Source: Clostridiales bacterium
GTDB lineage: Bacteria; Bacillota; Clostridia; Saccharofermentanales; Saccharofermentanaceae
Length of the DNA: 64,000 nt
Assembly: GCA_017615325.1 (NCBI GenBank)
Contig: JAGAAI010000074.1
Span: 20,675-84,674 of the forward strand
Direction of reading: 5' to 3'
A program made the translations under genes and the position numbers. Positions within the stretch are counted from its first letter, which is position 1. Each line of letters begins with the position of its first letter. The notes beneath the pieces were generated by a model. That model had not been told where the DNA came from. It did not search any database and saw nothing but the letters and a program-made list of their open reading frames with translations. Below, piece after piece: positions 20,485 through 60,477 of the stretch.

Positions 20485-20513
20485 ATTCTATATCAAATTC
20501 TTCCGGAATGTAA
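20485..20513 (-). promoter_or_regulatory. candidate metK promoter
   Basis: Minus strand reads TTACAT-17-TAGAAT, about 30 nt before the metK start. Confidence 0.5.
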
Positions 20514-20530
20514 CCCTTTTGTCGAAAACT

Positions 20531-20591
20531 GAGACTTTGTGAGACTTTGTGAGATTTTGTGAGATTTTTGGCCACTTTTGCGATGTATGAT
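20531..20591 (+). promoter_or_regulatory. phased 10-bp repeat cassette (4 x GAGAYTTTKK) plus TATGAT box upstream of the Tad operon
   Basis: GAGACTTTGT GAGACTTTGT GAGATTTTGT GAGATTTTTG, then GGCCACTTTTGCGATG-TATGAT. The same geometry recurs at 58579-58658. Confidence 0.5.
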
Positions 20592-20633
20592 TTATACACA
20601 AAAACCAAACAATCAACAAGGAGGAACAAACAA

Positions 20634-21515
20634 ATGGCATTCGGCATAAAGGTCTTCATCAAGGACGAATACTTATTCACACTTTTGCGTCAGCGTTTGG
20701 GTTACTGCTTCCCTGAAGCATATATCATGAGGTTCTCATGCCCGGATGCCCTGGCAAAGTGTGACAAAGATCAGGAGAGGTTCTGCGAATTCGAGAAGAC
20801 CCTCTACGACCAGAGACAGTTTAAAGCCCAGGACACGGGTGATCCTGGAGCGGTAGCTCTGTTTGATGAGAAGGGCATCATAGACTGCAAGAGGATCATC
20901 CGGGCATTGGGGATCAATTCCAAGGTCACTCCCGTATCCATGTCGAGCAAACCCGGAAACAAAGTCACCGTGCTCTTATCCTTCGTATACCGCAAGGAAC
21001 TCGAGGATTATATACATGATCTCACTGATCCTTACGATTACGATATTCCCTTAAGGCTCGACTTCACGGGAGGATTCGGACTCAATTCCAAAGAGAGCGA
21101 AAACATGAACGAACTCGTAAGGCGGTCTGCCTCAAGGAGATTTACGGCAAGCGATATCCTGTCCTATGTCAGAAGGGATGATCAGGGCTTCATGACTCCC
21201 GGAGGATCCTTAGATCCCGATATCTGCCATGAGATAGGGTCAGCCGGGATCATAAAGATCCTTAACATGGCAAAGACTATCTCTTCTGAGGATTCATGGT
21301 CAGTATCGGTCCTTGCGGTATTGGATTCATTCTCATCAAAAGACATGATCGCAGTCGCCAAAGAAGCAGACCGCGTGATCGTATTGGCTCACGATATGTC
21401 CCAGGGATTATCTGATTTCGTGTCCGGGATCAACAGGGCTCTTCCGCCTGACATAAAAGCTGAACTGATCCTCACGGAAGAAAGGACGGCAGCATATGAC
21501 AAGAATGCAGTATAG
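20634..21515 (+). CDS. hypothetical protein in the TadZ/CpaE position of a Tad operon (no Walker A)
   Basis: ATG 20634 lies 9 nt after AAGGAGG, and the ORF-track start 20559 falls inside the repeat cassette. 293 aa. The role is inferred from position only. No GK[ST] motif is present. Confidence 0.6.
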   Translation: MAFGIKVFIKDEYLFTLLRQRLGYCFPEAYIMRFSCPDALAKCDKDQERFCEFEKTLYDQRQFKAQDTGDPGAVALFDEKGIIDCKRIIRALGINSKVTPVSMSSKPGNKVTVLLSFVYRKELEDYIHDLTDPYDYDIPLRLDFTGGFGLNSKESENMNELVRRSASRRFTASDILSYVRRDDQGFMTPGGSLDPDICHEIGSAGIIKILNMAKTISSEDSWSVSVLAVLDSFSSKDMIAVAKEADRVIVLAHDMSQGLSDFVSGINRALPPDIKAELILTEERTAAYDKNAV

Positions 21516-22701
21516 ACCCGAAGATATCAAAGAGCAGATGACATATTACGTCTTAAGCGCCATCAGGACCGGCGGTGACCCCTCTGACGATGAACTCAAG
21601 GAGATCATCGCCAATGTGATATCAGACCGTGCCAAGGATCTTAAGATGACTTTAGATGAGAGGCGGGCTCTGGCAGGGGTGGTCTTCAATTCCCTGAGAA
21701 GACTTGATGCGATCGAACCTCTGATGGAAGATCCTTCTGTCACAGAGATCATGGTCAACGGCCCTGACAACGTCTTCTTCGAAAGAGACGGCAAACTCTA
21801 CAAGTCAGCCCTAAAGTTCAAGGATGCCAAACACCTTACGACAGTGATATCGGCATTCTTCGCCAACCGCAACAGGCCGCTGAACGAAGCCAATCCTATA
21901 GCTGACCTAAGGCTTCCTGACGGGTCAAGGGCTAACGCCGTCCTCCCGCCGGTCGCACCGGACGGCCCGATAGTGACGATAAGGAAGTTCACGGGTGTGT
22001 CACACGACATAGCTTCCCTTATAAGAAACGGCTTTATAAGCGAGGAATGTGCGAGATTTCTGTCTGAATGCGTGAAAAACAGGAAGACGGTCTTCCTATG
22101 CGGAGGCACAGGATCAGGCAAAACGACCTTCCTCAATTGCTTATCCGGCTTCATTCCCACGTCCGAAAGAGTTGTCACCATCGAGGACTCGGCCGAGCTC
22201 AATCTGCGCGGCATAGATAACCTCGTCAGGATGGAGAGCCGCCTCCCAGGGCCTGACGGTTCCGGTGAGGTAAATATCAGGATGATGATCAGAGCTGCCT
22301 TGAGGATGCGACCGGACAGGATCATAGTAGGTGAAGTCAGGGGCGAAGAAAGCGCGGACATGATCCACGCCCTCAATACAGGGCACCCCGGGTCCATGTG
22401 CACAGGTCACGCCAATTCCTGCAGTGAGATGTTAGACCGCCTGACCGTAATGGTCATGGCAGGTTCCAACCTGCCCTACGAAGCCATCGTCTCCCAGATA
22501 TCGATGGGACTCGACATAATCCTGCACATAACCCGTGCCAGGAACGGAAAAAGATACATAGACGAAGTCTGTCAGGTATTAAAGTCCTCGGGGCAGACAT
22601 TTAACACAAAGGTCCTTTTCGCGGCAGAAAAAGGAGGTGGTCAGCTTGAAAGGATCGCCAGCATTGAAGAACTCCGGGCATGCCAGACTTATTCATATTG
22701 A
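21496..22701 (+). CDS. tadA: CpaF/TadA-family type IV pilus (Tad) secretion ATPase
   Basis: 401 aa with Walker A GGTGSGKTT, RIIVGEVRGEE, and TGHPGSMCTGHAN (His box). Confidence 0.9.
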   Translation: MTRMQYRPEDIKEQMTYYVLSAIRTGGDPSDDELKEIIANVISDRAKDLKMTLDERRALAGVVFNSLRRLDAIEPLMEDPSVTEIMVNGPDNVFFERDGKLYKSALKFKDAKHLTTVISAFFANRNRPLNEANPIADLRLPDGSRANAVLPPVAPDGPIVTIRKFTGVSHDIASLIRNGFISEECARFLSECVKNRKTVFLCGGTGSGKTTFLNCLSGFIPTSERVVTIEDSAELNLRGIDNLVRMESRLPGPDGSGEVNIRMMIRAALRMRPDRIIVGEVRGEESADMIHALNTGHPGSMCTGHANSCSEMLDRLTVMVMAGSNLPYEAIVSQISMGLDIILHITRARNGKRYIDEVCQVLKSSGQTFNTKVLFAAEKGGGQLERIASIEELRACQTYSY

Positions 22702-24193
22702 ACCGGATGAAAGGCAGAAAACTCTTGTAAAGTATATATGGATCTACCCTGCATTCGTTGCAGCAGTTTTCTTTCTGTCATCCCTCTTCATGGATTCGTT
22801 TAAGATAAGGCTTGTATCCGCACTCTTTCTCGGCTTTTTTCCCTGGAAAGAGACAGTCTACAGGATCTATAACTCCGCCTATGAGCAGATGAGGACTCAG
22901 CTTCTTGTCCTCCTGCAGGTGCTTTGTACGGGAGTAAGTTCAGGTTACTCGATAGAAAAATCCCTGACCCTGGTCCGCCCTGTCATAGAGCATACTTTCG
23001 GCAAAAGGAGCCCTCTTATCAAGCCTCTTATAAAGATGGAGAACAAGCTCAAGATGCATATCGACTCGGAAAGGGTCTTAAGCGAGTTTGCGTCTGACCT
23101 TAATTTCCCCGAGACCATCCCTGTTTTCCATGCATTGTCCATATCAGGCAGGATCGGCAGCAGCACCTTGGCGATCTTAAGATCCTCATGTCAGATGCTG
23201 TCGGAGATGAATGCCGTCCATAACGACATAAACGCCGAGAACGCCGGCAAGAACGCAGAAGCCGTAATGCTCTGCATCATGCCCTTCGCCATAACATTTG
23301 CCCTCAATCAGATGAGCAGCAATTATTTGGCCGAAGCGAAAGCCTCCGGCGCCGGGAAGATCCTCATGGCAGTGGCATTTGTGCTCTGCATAATCGCGGC
23401 AGCCCTTCTCTTCAGGTTCATGACCCACCCGGAGAATTCTCCGGCCAAAAATCCGGATACCGACTCATCCCCCGGGAAGAAGACACCCTTAGCAGATATG
23501 CTGACTTCCATCCTTCCCACATCATTTATCGCGCGCCGCCACACCATGTTCAACGAACTGTCTTATAACCCGAGGATAAGTTATGAGAAATATATCCGGA
23601 AACAGATCATCACGACCTTAGCTGCAGGAGCACTGGTGTTCACGATAACGGGAGCTATAGGCAAGCCTCAGATCCTGTCGGTCCCCGCAATGATACTTAT
23701 CTATGTCCTTAACATCAACGATATAAGGACCAGGGTCAACCTGAAGCATGAAGACTTAATGAGAGACATCCCCCTCTTCTTATGTCTCATGTCAACACTG
23801 TTAGAAGCCGGATTGCAGCTGCCGAAAGCTATCGAAATCTGTTCTAAGGCATTCGATGAACACGGAACCATCTCTTACGAGATCAATGCGATGAGGGCGG
23901 GGATCCTAAGCGGACTTTCCGCTTCGGAAGCTGTCGAAAACTTTTCCATAAGGACTCAGATACCGGAAGCCAAGGCCGCCCTCCTCCTTGTAGCGAGATA
24001 CGGCAGGCTCGGCACCGCTGAAGTACTTAATCTCTTATCCTTACAGGCATCAGCCTGTTGGAATCTATGCCGCAACGCAGCCCGCAAAAAACAGGAGCGC
24101 GAGTCCCTGGGCATGCTCCTGCCCATGACTCTGGACTTCATCTGCGTGCTGATAGTTGCAGTAACACCGGCGATCATTTCCATGGCCATATGA
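22637..24193 (+). CDS. fused TadB-TadC-like type II secretion system F-family membrane protein
   Basis: Two T2SSF-like modules (VLCTGVSSGYSIEKSL... and LCLMSTLLEAGLQLPKAIE...) with transmembrane segments. The start is either GTG 22637 or, more likely, TTG 22646 (8 nt after AGGAGG). Either way it overlaps tadA by 56-65 nt. Confidence 0.75.
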   Translation: MVSLKGSPALKNSGHARLIHIEPDERQKTLVKYIWIYPAFVAAVFFLSSLFMDSFKIRLVSALFLGFFPWKETVYRIYNSAYEQMRTQLLVLLQVLCTGVSSGYSIEKSLTLVRPVIEHTFGKRSPLIKPLIKMENKLKMHIDSERVLSEFASDLNFPETIPVFHALSISGRIGSSTLAILRSSCQMLSEMNAVHNDINAENAGKNAEAVMLCIMPFAITFALNQMSSNYLAEAKASGAGKILMAVAFVLCIIAAALLFRFMTHPENSPAKNPDTDSSPGKKTPLADMLTSILPTSFIARRHTMFNELSYNPRISYEKYIRKQIITTLAAGALVFTITGAIGKPQILSVPAMILIYVLNINDIRTRVNLKHEDLMRDIPLFLCLMSTLLEAGLQLPKAIEICSKAFDEHGTISYEINAMRAGILSGLSASEAVENFSIRTQIPEAKAALLLVARYGRLGTAEVLNLLSLQASACWNLCRNAARKKQERESLGMLLPMTLDFICVLIVAVTPAIISMAI

Positions 24194-24218
24194 TCTTATG
24201 AGAAAGGAGGTAAAAGCT

Positions 24219-24392
24219 ATGACCCGGATCAAAAAGCACAATAAAAGAGGCATGGGCACGGTTGAAGTCGTGATCATCATCGCTGTCCTTGTTGCACTGG
24301 CTCTGATCTTCAGAGAAAGTCTTACCAGCTATGCAGGGAAAGTCATCAAGTTCTGCTTCAACGAAGACAAAGTCGTCTCAGCTTTAAGCTGA
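24219..24392 (+). CDS. flp: Flp-family type IVb prepilin
   Basis: ATG 24219 lies 8 nt after AAAGGAGG. The 57-aa product is MTRIKKHNKRG/MGTVEVVIIIAVLVALALIF: a basic leader, Gly, Glu at +5, then a hydrophobic helix. Confidence 0.75.
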   Translation: MTRIKKHNKRGMGTVEVVIIIAVLVALALIFRESLTSYAGKVIKFCFNEDKVVSALS

Positions 24393-24417
24393 CAGCATCG
24401 ATAAGTGAGGTATGTAT

Positions 24418-25713
24418 ATGATAAACAGAAAAGGTCCTTTCGGATGTTATGCGACAGAACAGATCAGATCTGATCTATCTGTCAGCGAATATGCCATGGC
24501 AGTGATCAACGGCAACAGCTCCGGTTGTTTTCTCCCGTGCATCATAAACCGATACGGCGAGGTCAAAGAATTCTCTTTCGATTACTCAGGGATGATCCCC
24601 CTGACAGAATTTGACGGTGCCGGATCAGCCAAACACAAGTTCCCGAATCTTCTTTCGCGCGGGGACAAACTGAAGTTGCGCCGCAAAGCCGTCGGGACTT
24701 TTCTCATGCAGATACTTATCCTCATGAATAATCTCCTTCCTCCGGAAGGAATAGTACTGACACTTAAGAACATCTATACTGACAAAGACGGTACCGTCTT
24801 AAAATTTTGTTACAGACCGGAAGAATTCAAAAGTTCCTCATTAAGACTGAGCTCACTTAATGAGGACGACATGGAAGAACTTATAAACACTGATTTCATA
24901 TCAGAAATATTGACCGAAGACGAGAAACAGTCCATACTGCACGCCATCAGCACAGGTGACGAAGACATGTTCTGCAACTGCTGCCGGATCATCATGTCAG
25001 CCAAGGGATCAGTATCAGGATCAAAAGATACAGGTAAGATGCGGTCTTTAAACAACGCACTCTGTGTAAGATCTGATCTTATCATCCCCTCCCTTACCGT
25101 CATCTGTTCCGTTTATTCTTTGCAAAACATCGGCCGTAAGGCTGCTTTCCTTTTCGCATGGGCAGGCCTGATCCTCATAGCGCGTGTGATATGGAAAGAC
25201 AGAAATACAAAAGAAAACACTTGCACAGCGAAAAAGGAGGACACCGACTATCAGGGACAATTAAGAAGAAAGATCTTATTCTCTAGACCACGGTCCGGGC
25301 CTGTCGCAAACGGCAGCGTATATACGGGAGACAATGAAGATAATTGCTTTGACCTGAATTATGCTTCCCTTAAGTCATTGACCAAAGAGATATCGGCGGA
25401 CGGTATCCCCAGGGAAGAACGATACTCTATATATACGGACAAAGTTACGGTAGGCTCGGACCAGTTCCTCTCTGATATCGTGATAGACGACGATTCCGTG
25501 GAATCTCAGCACGCAACGATAACATTCGAAAACAAGCAGTATTACCTTACGGACCTCAGCATATCCCACAAGACATATATAGACGACAAATCCTTGCTGC
25601 CGGGCAAGCGGTATGAGATCAAGAACAATCAGAAGCTGACCTTCGGAGATAAAGACTACAGATTCCTGATATCGCTTTCGGAAAGCGCTAAGGATAAGGG
25701 AGAGTGGTATTGA
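24418..25713 (+). CDS. FHA domain-containing membrane protein (pilus-operon associated)
   Basis: C-terminal FHA (VTVGSDQFLSDIVIDDDSVESQHATITFENKQYYLTDLSISHKTYIDDK) and a central transmembrane pair. Start is at the second ATG (24418), 7 nt after GTGAGG. Confidence 0.8.
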   Translation: MINRKGPFGCYATEQIRSDLSVSEYAMAVINGNSSGCFLPCIINRYGEVKEFSFDYSGMIPLTEFDGAGSAKHKFPNLLSRGDKLKLRRKAVGTFLMQILILMNNLLPPEGIVLTLKNIYTDKDGTVLKFCYRPEEFKSSSLRLSSLNEDDMEELINTDFISEILTEDEKQSILHAISTGDEDMFCNCCRIIMSAKGSVSGSKDTGKMRSLNNALCVRSDLIIPSLTVICSVYSLQNIGRKAAFLFAWAGLILIARVIWKDRNTKENTCTAKKEDTDYQGQLRRKILFSRPRSGPVANGSVYTGDNEDNCFDLNYASLKSLTKEISADGIPREERYSIYTDKVTVGSDQFLSDIVIDDDSVESQHATITFENKQYYLTDLSISHKTYIDDKSLLPGKRYEIKNNQKLTFGDKDYRFLISLSESAKDKGEWY

Positions 25714-45376: not shown

Positions 45377-46063
45377 TCAGCCGCCGATCAGGCCTCCGCC
45401 ATTGCCGCCCTGATCAGGCTCGGGGATAACGGTAAGATTCTGCGGAACAGAACCGAAAAGATCCTTGATGGCAGCATCGACCTTCTCATACTCAGAGACT
45501 GCGAGCTTGGCAGCATCTTCTTCTGTTGCGTTCTCATCAGCAACAGCGCCCGCCATGATGAAGATGACAAGGTCATCTACCTTATAGAGTCTTGCACCCT
45601 CTACCTTAGCGACACCGAAAGGATACTGACGGATGTAGCTTACTGTCTGGGCATAGCTCTGATTGATCATTTCAACTGCTTCATCAGCATATCCGGCCTT
45701 GCACTTTGCAATAACGACCGAATCAACATTCAATGCGGGAACCTGAGTCTGCTTTGCAACATAGCTTTCAACCTTATCAAGGTCAAGCGCGCCCATCGGG
45801 CAGACATAGAGTTCATCCTCGGGAACATCTACAGTACAGAGGTAACCGTCACCCAGTGCGGCAGCAACTGCCTTCTCGACTGCTTCAGGTGTAACAGTTT
45901 CAGCCTTGGTCTCTTCCGTGTCCTTGGATTCTTCCGTATCCTTGGATTCCTCTGTTACCTTGTTCTCTGTCGTTGCTGTTGTCTCTCCGCCGCCATTTGA
46001 AGAACAGGCTGCAGCTGACAGCATCAAAGTGCCTGCAAGGATAAATGCCAATATCTTTTTCAT
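45377..46063 (-). CDS. lipoprotein (DUF4358-like) preceding MBOAT
   Basis: Lipobox SAAAC and a Thr/Glu-rich linker. It is the first gene of the three-gene cluster. The family name is from memory. Confidence 0.65.
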   Translation of the reverse strand: MKKILAFILAGTLMLSAAACSSNGGGETTATTENKVTEESKDTEESKDTEETKAETVTPEAVEKAVAAALGDGYLCTVDVPEDELYVCPMGALDLDKVESYVAKQTQVPALNVDSVVIAKCKAGYADEAVEMINQSYAQTVSYIRQYPFGVAKVEGARLYKVDDLVIFIMAGAVADENATEEDAAKLAVSEYEKVDAAIKDLFGSVPQNLTVIPEPDQGGNGGGLIGG

Positions 46064-56575: not shown

Positions 56576-57859
56576 TCACTTCGTATGGTCGAAAAGCCCC
56601 TCTGTCATGCCGTAGGCTATAACGTTTCCGACAATCCCGTCGACCCCGGTATTTAAGGAAGTGAGCTTGGTCTCAAAACTGTCGCCACTTGACATGTCCA
56701 GCACAAAATGCACCTCCTTGGGCTCGCACCTTAATGCCACGACATATATCCTGTATCCGTGAGTATCTTCGGGATAGGGCCCGACATAGCCTTCTTCCTT
56801 CTTCTTAAACTGGCCCTCATCCACATGAGTTCCTTCAACGACCGTATACCAGTGGAGCCAGTTAACCGCTTCCTCGTCGATCATAAGGATCGCATAGCAG
56901 GATGCGCCTTCAACTTCATCCCAGCTAAGTTCAGGTGAGATGTTCTCTTTCTTGACGCCTATCGCAGGCTTAAAGAAGTCCCCTTCCATGCTTTTCGATG
57001 CGACATTAAAAGTCGGCAGTTCCTCTTTATAAACCTTATCCTCACCTGCTCCGCCTAACACCTCAATGTCGTAAACCCTGCCGCCTATCGACTCGAAATC
57101 CCTGGTCAGTGCGATCTGGGCCTTCCCCTCATCCGTTGTCGCATTAAGGGTAATATCCCCCTTATCCGTAATCACGCCATCCAGGAACTTAAACTTCTGC
57201 TCGACCCTGCCGGCCCTACCTATCCATGTAAGCACGCCGTTTCCCATCGTCCCGAAAAGATGTTCATGCGGGTCATTCACGTCCTCCGTCAATCTGAAGG
57301 CAAACAGGCCCATATTGGGAGTAAACTTGATATAAAGATCCCCCATATCATCAGACGGCACCTTATCACCCATAAGTGTTCTGGCATAATCGGCCGATGC
57401 ATTGGTCATCTTCCACCTGCTCGCAGGGAAGAGTTCGTTATCAACCACCCATGAAGTGCAGTTCTCCTTCTCGATCTTCCATTCCCCCGTTGCAGGGTCA
57501 GGAACAAAGCTTACATCCTTGCTGATAGTCTGGGGCAAAAGTCCGGTCAGGTTTCCTGCAGCAAGTTCTATGCTGACCGTATCGCGGGCCGGTATCTCAC
57601 CGGAATCAAGTTTTTCTACATTATGAGACTTGATCTCCCCTTCTTCATACTGATCCAGATTAAGCAGTTCACTGACCTTGTCATCTGACACACCTGCGTT
57701 GTAATCGATATCTGTATTTATTTGCGGCTGGGTCGTCTCCGCCTCTGTGGGAGTGTCACCGGGGACAGCATCCCCAGCCGCCCCCGGCATTGAACATCCC
57801 ACAAGGGAACAAAGCAAAATTGCCGTGCAAACATTTATTGCTCTTTTCTTAATTTCCAT
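56576..57859 (-). CDS. lipoprotein with C-terminal PEBP (YbhB/YbcL) domain
   Basis: Start MEIKKRAINVCTAILLCSLVGC (ATG 57857-57859), 7 nt after GGGAGG. The C-terminal segment is ELSWDEVEGASCYAILMIDEEA...GYVGPYPEDTHGYRIYVVAL. Confidence 0.75.
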   Translation of the reverse strand: MEIKKRAINVCTAILLCSLVGCSMPGAAGDAVPGDTPTEAETTQPQINTDIDYNAGVSDDKVSELLNLDQYEEGEIKSHNVEKLDSGEIPARDTVSIELAAGNLTGLLPQTISKDVSFVPDPATGEWKIEKENCTSWVVDNELFPASRWKMTNASADYARTLMGDKVPSDDMGDLYIKFTPNMGLFAFRLTEDVNDPHEHLFGTMGNGVLTWIGRAGRVEQKFKFLDGVITDKGDITLNATTDEGKAQIALTRDFESIGGRVYDIEVLGGAGEDKVYKEELPTFNVASKSMEGDFFKPAIGVKKENISPELSWDEVEGASCYAILMIDEEAVNWLHWYTVVEGTHVDEGQFKKKEEGYVGPYPEDTHGYRIYVVALRCEPKEVHFVLDMSSGDSFETKLTSLNTGVDGIVGNVIAYGMTEGLFDHTK

Positions 57860-58025: not shown

Positions 58026-58402
58026 GGGGGCGTTCCGGTCTCGACATGGCTGTTGCAACCGAGAAAGCGGGTGGAGGATTCTCGTTGTGCCTCCTTAAAA
58101 AACGGGAACTTGCAAGTAATTGCAGACAATACACAGCTCGTAGCAGCTTAAGCTACCTGCCCGGTCACTCTATCTGCGGATGACCGGGGTGGTCCTTAGC
58201 AGACCTTTGCCGAAGGAGGTCAGTCGGCAGGAGGATCCGGCAAAGCTTTGAGCCGGTGACGCCTTAAATCCATGAAGCTACCGGAACCGACGCCCGTCGA
58301 CGGGCTACGCGGGAATGGGAATGATCCATCCGTCGACTGCACCCGGAGATGTCTCGGTGAATACGGTTGTGGACAGGAGTTCGACTCTCCTCGCCTCCAC
58401 CA
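58026..58402 (+). ncRNA. ssrA: transfer-messenger RNA (tmRNA)
   Basis: 5' GGGGGCG pairs with 3' CGCCUCC-A-CCA, including the G3.U alanine identity pair. T-arm is GGAGTTCGACTCTCC. The internal tag reading frame ends ...GCA GAC AAT ACA CAG CTC GTA GCA GCT TAA (ADNTQLVAA*, stop 58149-58151). Confidence 0.95.
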
Positions 58403-58406
58403 ATAC

Positions 58407-58486
58407 GCAAATACCCTTTGCTCTTGGCTTCGAACAGGTCCTCGGCGCGAGGCACCTGCGGAACTTGCAGAGCAAAGGGTATTTGC
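58407..58486 (+). repeat. 18-bp perfect inverted repeat with nested hairpins immediately 3' of ssrA
   Basis: GCAAATACCCTTTGCTCT (58407-58424) pairs with AGAGCAAAGGGTATTTGC (58469-58486). The 44-nt spacer contains CAGGT/ACCTG and CCTCG-GCG-CGAGG stems. Confidence 0.8.
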
Positions 58487-58578
58487 TTGCCGAGTGCGGA
58501 AACAGCCAGGCATTTGTTATTTGCTTCACAGAGGTGCTTCTCCTCTTTTGATCAGTCCTTAACTACAGAAAACGTAGT

Positions 58579-58658
58579 GGTTTTTGTAGGTTTTTGTAGG
58601 TTTTTGTAAGCATTTGTGAGCATTTGTGAGATTTTCCGGCCGCTTTAGGGTTTATGAT
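58579..58658 (+). promoter_or_regulatory. phased 10-bp repeat cassette (3 x GGTTTTTGTA, 2 x AGCATTTGTG) plus TATGAT box
   Basis: Five in-phase decamers lie at 58579-58630. Then GATTTTCCGGCCGCTTTAGGGTT-TATGAT follows. This parallels 20531-20591, with the same 23-nt distance from the last TTGTGA to TATGAT. Confidence 0.5.
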
Positions 58659-58688
58659 TAGAGTATATAAATCCAAGGAGGCAAAGCC

Positions 58689-59432
58689 ATGTCATCACCA
58701 TCATATGAACCTCACTTTTCAGCAGAACATCTGGCACGAAAGATCTTTTACCTCCAGAACAAATTGGATTCCCTTCCCAGAGGCTATGTTGTTACACGGC
58801 ACAATAACAAATACATTCGCATAAAACTATCTTCCGGCACTATAGAACGAAGCATAGCCACCCCGGAGGGCAAGGATTTACTCGCGCAGGCAAATAAATA
58901 CAAACAGACTCTGACCGAACTTCAAAATACACAGAAAGAGTGGTTAACGCACTACCCTGGACTTGATCTTCAGGAGCCCAAACCCATCAACAGAAGCCTT
59001 CCGATCCCCGAATGCATGACACTGGCCTATTATGAGAATCCGCCGGACATAAAGAATGATTGCAAGATCCTGACTCCTTATCCTTTTGACGATCTCATAT
59101 TAAAATCCAGGTTCGAGTATATTGCCGCAGAGACATTTAAAGAGATGGGAATTCCTTTCAAGTACGAGATCCCGATAATAACTCCGGGAGGAGTATTGTT
59201 TCCTGATATGATCGTACCTGTACCCGAGAGGGGCCGCTGCGTTGGGTTCGAGTTTTGCGGCAAATCCGGAGAGCATAAATACATGACCAACAACAGCAAT
59301 AAGATGATCTACTACAACGATACAGGACTTGTTTTAAACCATGACATCATCTTTGTGTATGGTGGCGAGAACTGGCTCCCTCCTATTAGTGAGATCAAGA
59401 ATGCGATTATTTTCGGGATCGAAAACTGTTGA
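58689..59432 (+). CDS. hypothetical protein with PD-(D/E)xK nuclease-like motif order (TnsA/Vsr-like C-terminal half)
   Basis: 247-aa ORF with ATG 7 nt after AAGGAGG. The ordered motifs are KSRFE, VLFPDMIV and VGFEFCGK. No homology search was possible. Confidence 0.7.
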   Translation: MSSPSYEPHFSAEHLARKIFYLQNKLDSLPRGYVVTRHNNKYIRIKLSSGTIERSIATPEGKDLLAQANKYKQTLTELQNTQKEWLTHYPGLDLQEPKPINRSLPIPECMTLAYYENPPDIKNDCKILTPYPFDDLILKSRFEYIAAETFKEMGIPFKYEIPIITPGGVLFPDMIVPVPERGRCVGFEFCGKSGEHKYMTNNSNKMIYYNDTGLVLNHDIIFVYGGENWLPPISEIKNAIIFGIENC

Positions 59433-59453
59433 CCCATGCTACAACTAATATTT

Positions 59454-59658
59454 GGCAGAGTCATCCAACACTTCCAACAAATCAGTGTTTCAGTGACTAA
59501 TCTGGGTGACTCGAGGCACTTTTAGGGGGCAGAGTCACCCAACACTTCCAACAAATCAGTGTTTCAGTGACTAATCTGGGTGACTCAAGGCACTTTTAGG
59601 GGGCAGAGTCACCCAACCCTTCCAACAAATCAGTGTTCCAGTGACTAATCCGGGTGAC
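59454..59658 (+). repeat. tandem repeat, 74-bp unit x 2.8, each unit internally self-complementary
   Basis: Units 59454-59527 and 59528-59601 match at 72 of 74 positions. A third, decayed copy starts at 59602. The outer stem is GAGTCACCC/GGGTGACTC and the inner stem is AACACT/AGTGTT. Confidence 0.9.
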
Positions 59659-59680
59659 ACCTGCCAGGCTGAAAGCAGAC

Positions 59681-59735
59681 AAAAATTAAGAACCCGATGT
59701 ATCGAGGGGTGGGGGGGGTGATGCATCGGGTTCTT
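59681..59735 (-). terminator. rho-independent terminator after araD
   Basis: A 12-bp stem AAGAACCCGATG/CATCGGGTTCTT has a G-rich loop. It is followed on the minus strand by AATTTTTG. Confidence 0.75.
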
Positions 59736-59778
59736 ACTTAATATAGAGGCAAACTGTTACGAACAATGTTTGTGGGGG

Positions 59779-60477
59779 TTATTTGCTGTCCCCCTGACCA
59801 TAATAGGCGTTGGCGCCGTGCTTTCTCAGATAGTGCTTGTCGAGCAATACCTGTTGCATCCTTCCTGCTTCAGGATTCAGCATCAGCGCATGCAGATCCA
59901 TGAAAGCCACTTCTTCCATAACCACAGCGTTATGGACGGCGTTCGCGGGATCCGTCCCCCAGGCGAAAGGCCCGTGAGAGAACACGTTGACACCGGGGAT
60001 GGCGTCAGGATCTTTATCCTTGAAGGTCTCTACTATCACGTTACCTGTCTCCTTCTCATACTCACCCTTTATCTCCTCGTCTGTCATGGGACGGGTGCAG
60101 GGGATGTCACCGTAGAAGTAGTCACCGTGTGTGGTGCCCATTGCAGTGATGGCACGGCCTGCCTGGGCAAAGCTTACGGCCCAGCGGGAATGAGTATGCA
60201 CGACGCCTCCGATATTGGGGAAAGCCTTGTAGAGGACAACGTGCGTGGGGGTGTCGGAAGAAGGCTTCCACTTTCCTTCCACTACATTGCCGTCCAGGTC
60301 GACTACGACCATATCGTCGGCTGTCATGGTGTCATATTCTACACCAGAGGGCTTGATAACGACAAGACCCTTTTCGCGGTCGATGCCGCTGACGTTGCCC
60401 CAGGTGAAGGTTACTAGACCGAACTTCGGGAGCAGGAGATTGGCATCTAATACTGTCTTTTTGAGATCTTCTAACAT
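59779..60477 (-). CDS. araD: L-ribulose-5-phosphate 4-epimerase
   Basis: 232 aa of the class II aldolase/adducin fold. [22 protein letters not shown] and VVHTHSRWA are AraD-like. Confidence 0.85.

Follow-up and report, generated by a model that had tools for sequence, protein, structure and literature searches.

In type III toxin-antitoxin systems (ToxIN, CptIN, TenpIN, AbiQ-antiQ), a single protein gene stands beside a structured non-coding repeat that forms a short tandem array of about 2-5.5 copies, and the number of array copies varies in the antitoxins ToxI and CptI (PMC3401426), as it does between strains at the locus described here. This locus, which shares that basic composition, lies in a 64,000-nt stretch of DNA (the window, whose positions are used throughout) from a Clostridiales bacterium of the Saccharofermentanaceae (GCA_017615325.1, contig JAGAAI010000074.1). 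An open reading frame (ORF) for a two-domain protein of 247 residues (58689-59432, + strand; ORF call, family alignment and AlphaFold2 model) is followed, 21 nt past its stop codon, by a tandem array of 2.8 copies of a 74-bp hairpin unit (59454-59658, + strand; Tandem Repeats Finder, TRF). ORF and array together look like an undescribed two-part protein/nucleic-acid system, neither junk nor a generic repeat, and comparison with related loci establishes a protein/hairpin pair with cognate specificity that is under long-term selection and is kept as diverse alleles at fixed sites. The coupling of this protein family to private hairpin arrays appears to be undescribed, and our literature search found no description of such a nuclease/hairpin pair. 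The layout that an earlier note had read from this DNA, i.e. a transfer-messenger RNA (tmRNA) gene ending at 58402 and a well-initiated 247-residue ORF with AAGGAGG 7 nt ahead of its ATG, was confirmed in the sequence (Shine-Dalgarno motif at 58675-58681, + strand).

The array in the window (period 74, 96% matches, TRF score 375) consists of two full units (59454-59527 and 59528-59601), 72 of whose 74 positions are identical (97%), and a decayed copy from 59602 to about 59658 (81%). Each unit carries nested inverted repeats: in unit 1 the outer arms lie at 59458-59466 and 59504-59512 and the inner arms at 59467-59472 and 59484-59489 (+ strand), and AGTGACT (59492-59498, + strand; inverted-repeat search) is an alternative 3' partner. 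The outer arms read GAGTCA(T/C)CC on the 5' side (GAGTCACCC) and GGGTGACTC on the 3' side, the inner arms AACACT and AGTGTT, and adjacent units can alternatively pair across their junction (TGGGTGACTC-N19-GAGTCACCCA). Sequence inspection and a terminator scan found no terminator-like hairpin between the ORF stop and the array, and in the terminator scan the hairpins themselves had no U-tract. All these elements of the array, from the unit borders and the decayed third copy to the 21-nt offset, agree with the earlier description. Folding z-scores against shuffled sequences are -2.68 for the + strand and -2.09 for the - strand. Rfam 15 gave no match on the window array at E<=10 and none at gathering score in 12 related loci. 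A 55-nt core of the unit is unique to the array within the 64 kb, also when as many as 3 mismatches are tolerated (shuffled sequences gave 0 matches); the scattering over many ORF-free sites that would mark a generic element was thus not seen in this stretch, and the arrays are coupled to the ORF family.

This coupling was observed in relatives taken from metagenome contigs and contigs of metagenome-assembled genomes (MAGs), the hosts being rumen Clostridiales including Saccharofermentans. Within the close family, which comprises the 12 distinct loci examined at about 45-83% protein identity (the window, L001, L005/L007, L009/L018, L010, L011, L013, L014, L037, L039 and L041), hairpin units directly follow the stop codon in every case (12/12), at an offset of 1-26 nt, with a period of 63-78 bp, in 1-4.7 copies and with no intervening terminator. 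Among five distant members examined one has a downstream array, L033/L035 (about 24% identity), which shows the same layout with a 64-bp unit. The co-occurrence of ORF and repeats that the earlier note had proposed to look for is therefore found in 12/12 close and 1/5 distant loci, and its view that the array is not a protein repeat holds for the family, since periods of 63, 64, 72, 73, 74 and 78 exclude a coding repeat.

Most loci have unit sequences unrelated to those of the others, each with its own two-stem hairpin of about 50 nt, but the units have a common shape: an outer and an inner stem (7-12 and 6-12 bp) separated by a small internal loop, an apical loop, and a linker of about 10-24 nt. 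Since units of different elements defy position-by-position alignment, and with it column-wise covariation, cognate and non-cognate pairs of arms were compared: 5' and 3' arms share on average 13.8 complementary positions when cognate and 5.4 +/- 3.2 when non-cognate. Double changes that keep pairs are a C-G to G-C exchange in the outer stem between the window and L001, and a compensatory T/A insertion together with a T-A to G-C swap between L001 and L037. Arm complementarity is thus kept within each hairpin despite the turnover of sequence between loci. In L014, L041, L039, L011 and L010 the inner and outer stems bear the same 6-8-nt motif 12 nt apart (e.g. CTCACAA in L014, AGTCAC in L041 and TGCACAC in L039), a pattern to be expected of a duplex that is read by a protein but not of a bare terminator. 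Between the copies of an array conservation is uneven, at 100% in the 5' arm, 86-90% in the 3' arm, 50-64% in the loop and 35-68% in the linker, which places a directional constraint on the hairpin.

The protein has no match in Pfam even at E<=10, and none in NCBIfam or PHROGs; searching the PDB sequences with the single protein and with a profile gave nothing significant (best E 1.5, with the single protein). A word-indexed search of 5.8 billion proteins returned only 16 relatives, all unnamed or 'hypothetical'. A HMMER profile search of 1.84 billion cluster representatives matched 172 clusters at a cut-off of E<=1e-10 and 1,420 at E<=1e-3; most of the 150 best matches listed span the full length, with about 250 residues, and none of 50 sampled members is assigned by Pfam or NCBIfam. 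By these profile matches the window protein is a member of a large unannotated family, and the earlier statement that it belongs to no known family stands, Pfam, NCBIfam, PHROGs, PDB sequences and Rfam having given nothing.

The AlphaFold2 model of the window protein (mean pLDDT, the predicted local distance difference test, 91.3; pTM, the predicted template modelling score, 0.84) shows two domains, the C-terminal one of which (residues 131-247; 59079-59429, + strand) is delimited as a PD-(D/E)xK nuclease by its invariant residues, by PADLOC and Foldseek matches and by its ratio of nonsynonymous to synonymous divergence (dN/dS). In 50 family members with 19-83% identity, E143 (in SRFE), D173 (FPD), E188 (FEFxG) and G191 are invariant, the predicted catalytic codons lying at 59115-59117, 59205-59207 and 59250-59252 (+ strand; family alignment), and S140 is conserved family-wide. 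K192 is not conserved (K/R/M/L/S/A among members), the second position after E188 is hydrophobic or Cys, and within the close family K205, on the helix that follows, is invariant. Judged from this alignment, the active site is a variant of the E-x-x-G / E-x-D-G kind that lacks the canonical (D/E)xK lysine. The core alpha-beta-beta-beta-alpha-beta fold of the superfamily is found in the model (pLDDT 91, Foldseek), and the acidic residues that the superfamily conserves on helix 1, strand 2 and strand 3 correspond to E143, D173 and E188.

In PADLOC, the C-terminal domain of PDC-S68 matches 50/50 members (best E 5.7e-17) and HEAT_CxxC_PD-DEXK 8/50; only PDC-S68, PDC-S69 and PD-DEXK nuclease domains were matched in this search, and ToxN/AbiQ, CptN and TenpN were not. 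Foldseek against the viral models of BFVD retrieved DUF2726, Vsr, TnsA_N, Holliday-junction resolvases and restriction endonucleases (E 1e-4 to 2e-2), as well as T7-endonuclease-I-type enzymes and phage 'homing endonucleases', all with probability 0.9-1.0; matches in the PDB were weaker (R2 RLE domain, probability 0.77; AF1548, 0.69). The Pfam models TnsA_N, Vsr and DUF2726 themselves match neither the window protein at E<=10 nor any of the 50 members at E<=1. On alignment and structural model together, the C-terminal domain is a PD-(D/E)xK nuclease (TnsA/Vsr/DUF2726-like), homologous to the PDC-S68 effector domain and outside any Pfam family. The earlier assignment of this half of the protein to the TnsA/Vsr type is borne out by the alignment, PADLOC and Foldseek; of the motifs on which that assignment leaned, S-x-x-E, the hydrophobic-P-D and E188 are conserved, while the lysine of E-x-x-x-K (K192) turned out to be variable. 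Between alleles of the same site dN/dS in this domain is 0.02-0.04, which shows strong purifying selection.

The N-terminal domain (residues 30-100, three beta strands and a long helix; 58776-58988, + strand; delimited by dN and predicted secondary structure) is the fastest-evolving part of the protein, with a dN of 0.20-0.37 between same-site alleles compared with 0.03-0.04 in the nuclease domain, and is a candidate specificity domain. The predicted topology of the N-terminal region (H12-28, E31-37, E40-47, E50-55, H59-88) has the order of elements of a double-stranded RNA-binding domain (dsRBD; alpha-beta-beta-beta-alpha). When the domain was modelled alone (pLDDT 90), dsRBD-type Foldseek matches reached only E 0.085-0.9 with TM-scores below 0.3 (PDB), and the N-terminal part (about 110 residues) has no significant structural neighbour in the PDB by Foldseek (best E 0.085).

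The whole block between the tmRNA gene and the araD terminator (58403-59680) behaves as a variable cassette, differing between strains whose flanks (the tmRNA gene on one side, the araD terminator onward on the other) are 99-100% identical. At this site, next to an identical tmRNA gene and 99-100% identical araD-araB, at least three alleles occur: that of the window, that of L001 (83% protein identity) and that of L037 (81%). Each has its own hairpin unit, so that protein type and repeat type co-segregate, and the N-terminal domain and the array are the most diverged parts between same-site alleles. The number of hairpin copies is 3 or 4 in the window type (L019 having one unit more), 2 in the L001 type and 1 in the L037 type. 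The same is seen elsewhere. At the rpsO/H+-PPase site the flanks of L005 and L013 are 98-100% identical and their ORF and array 30-75%, the left breakpoint falling just inside the conserved 5' end of the ORF, and L011 and L039, which occupy one shared site (same flanking sequence), have different hairpin arms and strongly diverged ORFs. Synonymous divergence (dS) between same-site alleles ranges from 0.7 to saturated; beside near-identical flanks this indicates old lineages exchanged by recombination rather than fast evolution in place.

Further family sites include rqcH/queH, a tRNA flank and others. Two MAGs contain two deeply diverged paralogues each, every one with its own hairpin motif (L010 and L014 in JAGCSR010000043.1; L011 and L013 in JAEFAZ01), and in one of these MAGs the two copies of the module are only about 15 kb apart on the same contig. 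All ORFs among the examined loci are intact, and no pseudogenes were seen. None of the contigs with the window's exact AraD has an empty tmRNA-araD site; the ORF is present and intact in 15/15. Phage and plasmid collections (tblastn) and IMG/VR yielded no relative. This pattern of alleles fits balancing selection or an addiction module and not a decaying selfish gene. The idea, put forward in the earlier note, that the tmRNA flank served as a special insertion point for foreign DNA is not upheld: relatives lie at several other sites, with neither an empty site nor an identical second copy seen among them, and hence no sign of a recent foreign insertion. The comparison of the ssrA-araD junction that it had suggested did reveal a spacer block differing as a whole between strains, with sharp borders; all 15 contigs with the window's exact AraD were occupied.

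Upstream of the ORF, direct repeats phased at 10 bp (GGTTTTTGTA three times and GCATTTGTGA two to three times; 58579-58634, + strand; TRF and promoter alignment) precede a -10-like hexamer TATGAT (58653-58658, + strand; promoter alignment); TAT(G/C)AT stands at this position in 8/8 aligned promoters. The same module, which consists of AAAACTGAGAC, three to five 10-bp-phased TTTGT(G/A)AGnn, ATTTTCGG and TAT(G/C)AT, was found upstream of every close-family ORF compared. A scan with the sigma-70 consensus detected no canonical -35/-10 pair at the cassette promoter, which, as it shows no -35, is probably activator-dependent. A second copy of the module, near-identical to the family consensus (AAAACTGAGAC, three TTTGTGAGAn, ATTTTTGG, TATGAT, AAGGAGG), lies at 20510-20636, and the 64 kb contain the promoter pattern nowhere but at these two places (0.03 expected). 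The operon behind the second copy (20634-25713) encodes a 293-residue protein with no Pfam match (20634-21515), a T2SSE/TadA-type ATPase (21496-22701) and further ORFs of 518, 64 and 433 residues, and by its gene sizes it looks like a Tad/Flp-type pilus operon. Since the same module drives an unrelated operon, the upstream repeats are a promoter of a host regulon type and not a private operator of the cassette, and we rejected the reading of the 10-bp repeats as an autoregulatory operator. A promoter of host type also explains why the upstream repeats are constant while the hairpins change, and it implies a regulator common to the pilus operon and the nuclease. The repeats of a distant subfamily (TTGTCGA/TTGTCGG, TGTCGAA) resemble the '0A boxes' of Spo0A (TGNCGAA), a pattern which TTGTGAG of the window does not fit.

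We propose, tentatively and with a probability of about 0.35, that ORF and array form a cognate nuclease/hairpin-RNA module working like type III toxin-antitoxin or abortive-infection systems and lying outside the known families. ORF and array would be co-transcribed from the regulated promoter, which would place the array in the 3' untranslated region of the nuclease's own mRNA, and each hairpin of about 50 nt would offer one or two short duplex motifs to the cognate variable N-terminal domain. Binding by this domain would keep the nuclease inactive or control its synthesis. When the RNA is lost or outcompeted (in phage infection, transcription shut-off or loss of the locus), the free nuclease would cut nucleic acid. 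The logic would be that of type III toxin-antitoxin/abortive infection, carried out with a different toxin fold, gene order and RNA. Parts of this scheme are inferred rather than shown, namely that the hairpins act as RNA, that the N-terminal domain binds them, that binding inhibits the nuclease and that the purpose is defence or addiction. The flavour of a conflict system is supported by the ancient co-segregating alleles and by the homology to the phage-defence candidate PDC-S68; the analogy to type III and conflict systems drawn in the earlier note keeps this much, and every defining type III feature that can be tested on the sequence fails, which makes it an analogy at most.

Several observations weigh against this proposal. 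The structural relatives that Foldseek found for the catalytic domain are without exception endonucleases that cut DNA, and some are specific for structure. The promoter is of a host regulon type and is common to the Tad-pilus operon, and we know of no type III system with such a regulated promoter. Stem mismatches show no strand signal (G.T vs A.C 45 vs 57 and 12 vs 6), although a constraint strictly at the RNA level should strongly favour G.U on one strand, and in several arrays folding of the - strand is at least as good as that of the + strand. The likeness of the N-terminal domain to a dsRBD was dropped as evidence for RNA binding, as it is one of topology alone, with no significant neighbour. 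The distant members L029, L030 and L043 have clusters of palindromic motifs that precede the promoter repeats instead of following the ORF, and these look more like DNA sites. To our knowledge no member of the family has a toxicity or defence phenotype. The palindromic clusters of the distant members lie at about 900-1000 in L029, 2803-2935 in L030 and about 160-235 in L043, beside 10-bp repeats TTGTCGA/TTGTCGG, and these loci have no room for a downstream array.

A rival reading is a selfish cassette acting at the level of DNA, in which extruded hairpins or cruciforms (or folded single-stranded DNA) would be the substrate or landmark of a structure-specific nuclease, and cutting at them would set off recombinational repair that copies or exchanges ORF and array between genomes in a homing or gene-conversion-like manner, with attC as an analogy for recognition by structure. 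Such a cassette would account for the kinship of the catalytic domain to DNA endonucleases, including Holliday-junction resolvases, T7-endonuclease-I-type enzymes, TnsA, Vsr and phage 'homing endonucleases', for wobble pairs that, set against A.C mismatches, show no strand bias, and for the palindromes upstream of the promoter in distant members. Allelic replacement with sharp borders at two independent sites (with the left breakpoint of L005 vs L013 inside the 5' end of the ORF) and the presence of the elements at several unrelated intergenic sites, often next to terminators, a tRNA or the tmRNA gene, point the same way. Yet with 15/15 contigs occupied there is no empty site, and identical copies at different sites, pseudogenes, terminal inverted repeats and target duplications were not found among the loci; paralogues within a genome are deeply diverged, the phage, plasmid and IMG/VR collections hold no relative, and the strong purifying selection on the nuclease domain is unlike the gain, decay and loss of a homing cycle. 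We consider a DNA-level cassette unlikely, if a serious contender. Quite improbable, in our judgement, is an ordinary solitary nuclease (of restriction, repair or competence type) in a host regulon, whose 3' hairpins merely stabilise or terminate the mRNA and co-vary with the ORF because the block diverges jointly. Host regulation is indeed suggested by the promoter module in common with the Tad-pilus/T2SSE operon, the hairpins are positioned as a 3' stabiliser or terminator would be, and the downstream genes are convergent; however, the hairpins have no U-tract, they form a tandem array whose period is kept at 63-78 bp across proteins only about 24% identical, their inner and outer stems have a motif in common at a 12-nt spacing in many arrays, and within an array the 5' arm is perfectly kept while the linkers drift. 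In some members the palindromes lie upstream instead, and ancient balanced alleles would be unexpected for a housekeeping nuclease.

The array could also be read as a binding platform of double-stranded DNA, i.e. operator- or centromere-like sites (sopC after sopB, parC) for multimerisation of the protein, the arms being one motif in two orientations. The layout of a gene followed by tandem repeats does resemble sopB-sopC, identical motifs recur in direct and inverted orientation at regular spacing in L014, L041 and L039, and motif clusters surround the promoter in L029, L030 and L043. In L013, L009, L005, L001 and the window, however, the inner and outer motifs differ and yet each keeps its complement, which needs base pairing or two specificities; the 12-nt spacing is off-phase for B-form DNA, compared with exactly 10 bp in the promoter repeats; and the invariant catalytic residues would go unexplained. 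We regard this explanation as very unlikely. A generic repeat of REP/BIME type, or a tandem duplication that arose by chance and without relation to the ORF, has little beyond its intergenic location between convergent genes to recommend it: the unit is confined to the array in 64 kb, no Rfam family matches, and the finding that every relative has its own array at the matching position contradicts it, which makes its probability close to negligible.

On the left of the cassette, the tmRNA gene ssrA (58026-58402, + strand; ARAGORN, Rfam 134 bits) is directly followed by a long hairpin with 18-bp arms and a 44-nt loop (58407-58486, + strand; inverted-repeat search), which is probably the ssrA terminator or else a left-side structure of the cassette. 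L001 has a hairpin of the same layout with different arms, the arms thus being allele-specific and the loop partly conserved; the arms differ wholly (GCAAATACCCTTTGCTCT in the window, GCAAAACAATGCCTCGCA in L001), and the conserved part of the loop reads GGTCCTCGGC...CCTGCGGAA. Between the tmRNA gene and the promoter lies a unit of about 50 nt that starts with GTGCGGAAACAGC and is present once in the window (58492-58550), twice in L001 (5810-5870) and about three times in L037 (about 1990-2200); it is another repeat of variable copy number within the variable block. At L010 (2606-2770), L016 (2064-2215) and L041 (1536-1686), a conserved irregular hairpin of about 145 nt is found about 200 nt upstream of the ORF, in L041 after a tRNA gene; 9 of its 45 predicted pairs have compensatory changes among the three sequences, it has no Rfam match, and it is absent from the window. 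On the right, the terminator hairpin of the host gene araD (59684-59739, - strand; inverted repeat with its T-run on the - strand), identical in L001, is outside the cassette and marks its right border, and araD itself (Aldolase_II, Pfam) occupies 59779-60477 on the - strand. A G-run in the loop of this terminator (59704-59719, GGGGTGGGGGGGG) has 7, 8 or 9 G among otherwise identical contigs, which slippage at the homopolymer or noise in the assembly could explain. Immediately ahead of the tmRNA gene, a lipoprotein-like gene with a PBP domain (PF01161; 56576-57973, - strand) is 64-85% identical between the window and L001; the divergence is clearest at 57077-57700, the sequence on either side being 94-100% identical, and the gene is a second hypervariable locus beside the cassette. 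Farther away, an 18-bp tandem repeat at 45904-45962 (CCTTGGATTCTTCCGTAT; 2.6-3.3 copies, TRF) may be a coding repeat, as its period is a multiple of 3.

If the hairpins are the cognate RNA (or DNA) partner of the nuclease, the pair would bring a protein fold and an architecture, both new, to toxins and defence systems under nucleic-acid control, and a function could be given to at least 172 (up to about 1,400) protein clusters now without annotation. The allelic series at one site would be a natural set of specificity swaps for how a small domain reads a hairpin, possibly as a programmable recognition module, and among uncultured rumen Clostridia the ancient alleles beside 99-100% identical flanks would stand as a clear example of balancing selection. 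A more far-reaching interpretation, to which we give rather low odds, is that of a widespread and as yet unannotated class of hairpin-specified nucleases. In it the fast-diversifying N-terminal domain would recognise a two-stem hairpin, as RNA or as folded DNA, that is private to the locus and encoded beside the gene, and balancing selection would keep matched pairs as ancient alleles at fixed chromosomal sites. Self/non-self discrimination or anti-phage defence would then follow a principle not shared with toxin-antitoxin types I-VIII, CRISPR, retrons or TIGR-Tas, and the system would apparently be co-regulated with the Tad-type pilus operon.

Compared with the described families of its fold, the protein has in common with the TnsA/Vsr/DUF2726 nucleases and the C-terminal domain of PDC-S68 the ordered motifs S-x-x-E, hydrophobic-P-D-F and E-x-x-G and the fold itself, together with its homology to PDC-S68 and HEAT_CxxC_PD-DEXK. 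Unlike TnsA, Vsr and DUF2726 it has no Pfam match, lacks the canonical lysine and carries about 110 N-terminal residues with no detectable relative; we know of no member of these families or of PDC-S68 that is coupled to hairpin arrays. Integron cassettes similarly consist of an ORF followed by an imperfect palindrome (attC, 57-141 bp) with two paired boxes and an unpaired spacer, keep the structure while the sequence varies, and are exchanged as cassettes. In contrast to attC, the R''/R' consensus RYYYAAC / GTTRRRY is absent in the window (GAGTCACCC / GGGTGACTC) and at most loci, the match of the L005 arms (ATTCAAC / GTTGAAT) being taken to be due to chance; the units here are tandem, one ORF family is always attached and the cassettes are not in arrays. 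The absence of the core-site consensus led us to reject attC. No integrase was seen among those genes of the fetched loci that had a Pfam annotation, or among the few ORFs of the window that were scanned, no search of the window having been aimed at one.

The partition loci sopB-sopC (F plasmid) and parR-parC (R1/pSK41) offer a gene followed by tandem repeats of about 43 bp with an inverted repeat (sopC) and 10/11-bp direct repeats around the promoter (parC); the present locus differs from them in being a single chromosomal gene for a nuclease with conserved catalytic residues, with no ParA-type partner, and in having upstream repeats that also serve an unrelated operon. Repetitive extragenic palindromic (REP)/BIME elements with RAYT, and IS200/IS605, likewise tie hairpin repeats recognised by structure to a small nuclease gene, but there the nuclease has an HUH fold and REPs are scattered in hundreds of copies, and here the units are private to the locus; REP/BIME was rejected, as the only copies in 64 kb (<=3 mismatches) are those of the array. 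A CRISPR array was rejected as well, the whole 74-bp unit being repeated at 97% and the differing linkers of L005 being diverged copies of each other.

Among the closest parallels is type III, with which the locus further has in common cognate specificity, variable copy number, small, scattered and often multi-copy chromosomal loci and a link to defence. It departs from type III in the order of its parts, the array lying downstream of the gene (21 nt past the stop) with no separating terminator, as in all close relatives, whereas in type III it lies upstream and is separated by a terminator. Its units are extended hairpins of 63-78 nt and not pseudoknot-forming repeats of 34-45 nt, in place of a ToxN/AbiQ, CptN or TenpN endoribonuclease it has a PD-(D/E)xK nuclease of two domains (Pfam, NCBIfam, PADLOC), and its promoter is common to a host operon. 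In type III, moreover, the transcript of the repeats is cut by the toxin into single units, which then bind the toxin and inhibit it. Should the toxin-antitoxin-like reading be true, the system would be a variant of a known logic; should the hairpins work at the DNA level or serve as a recognition code, it would be categorically new.

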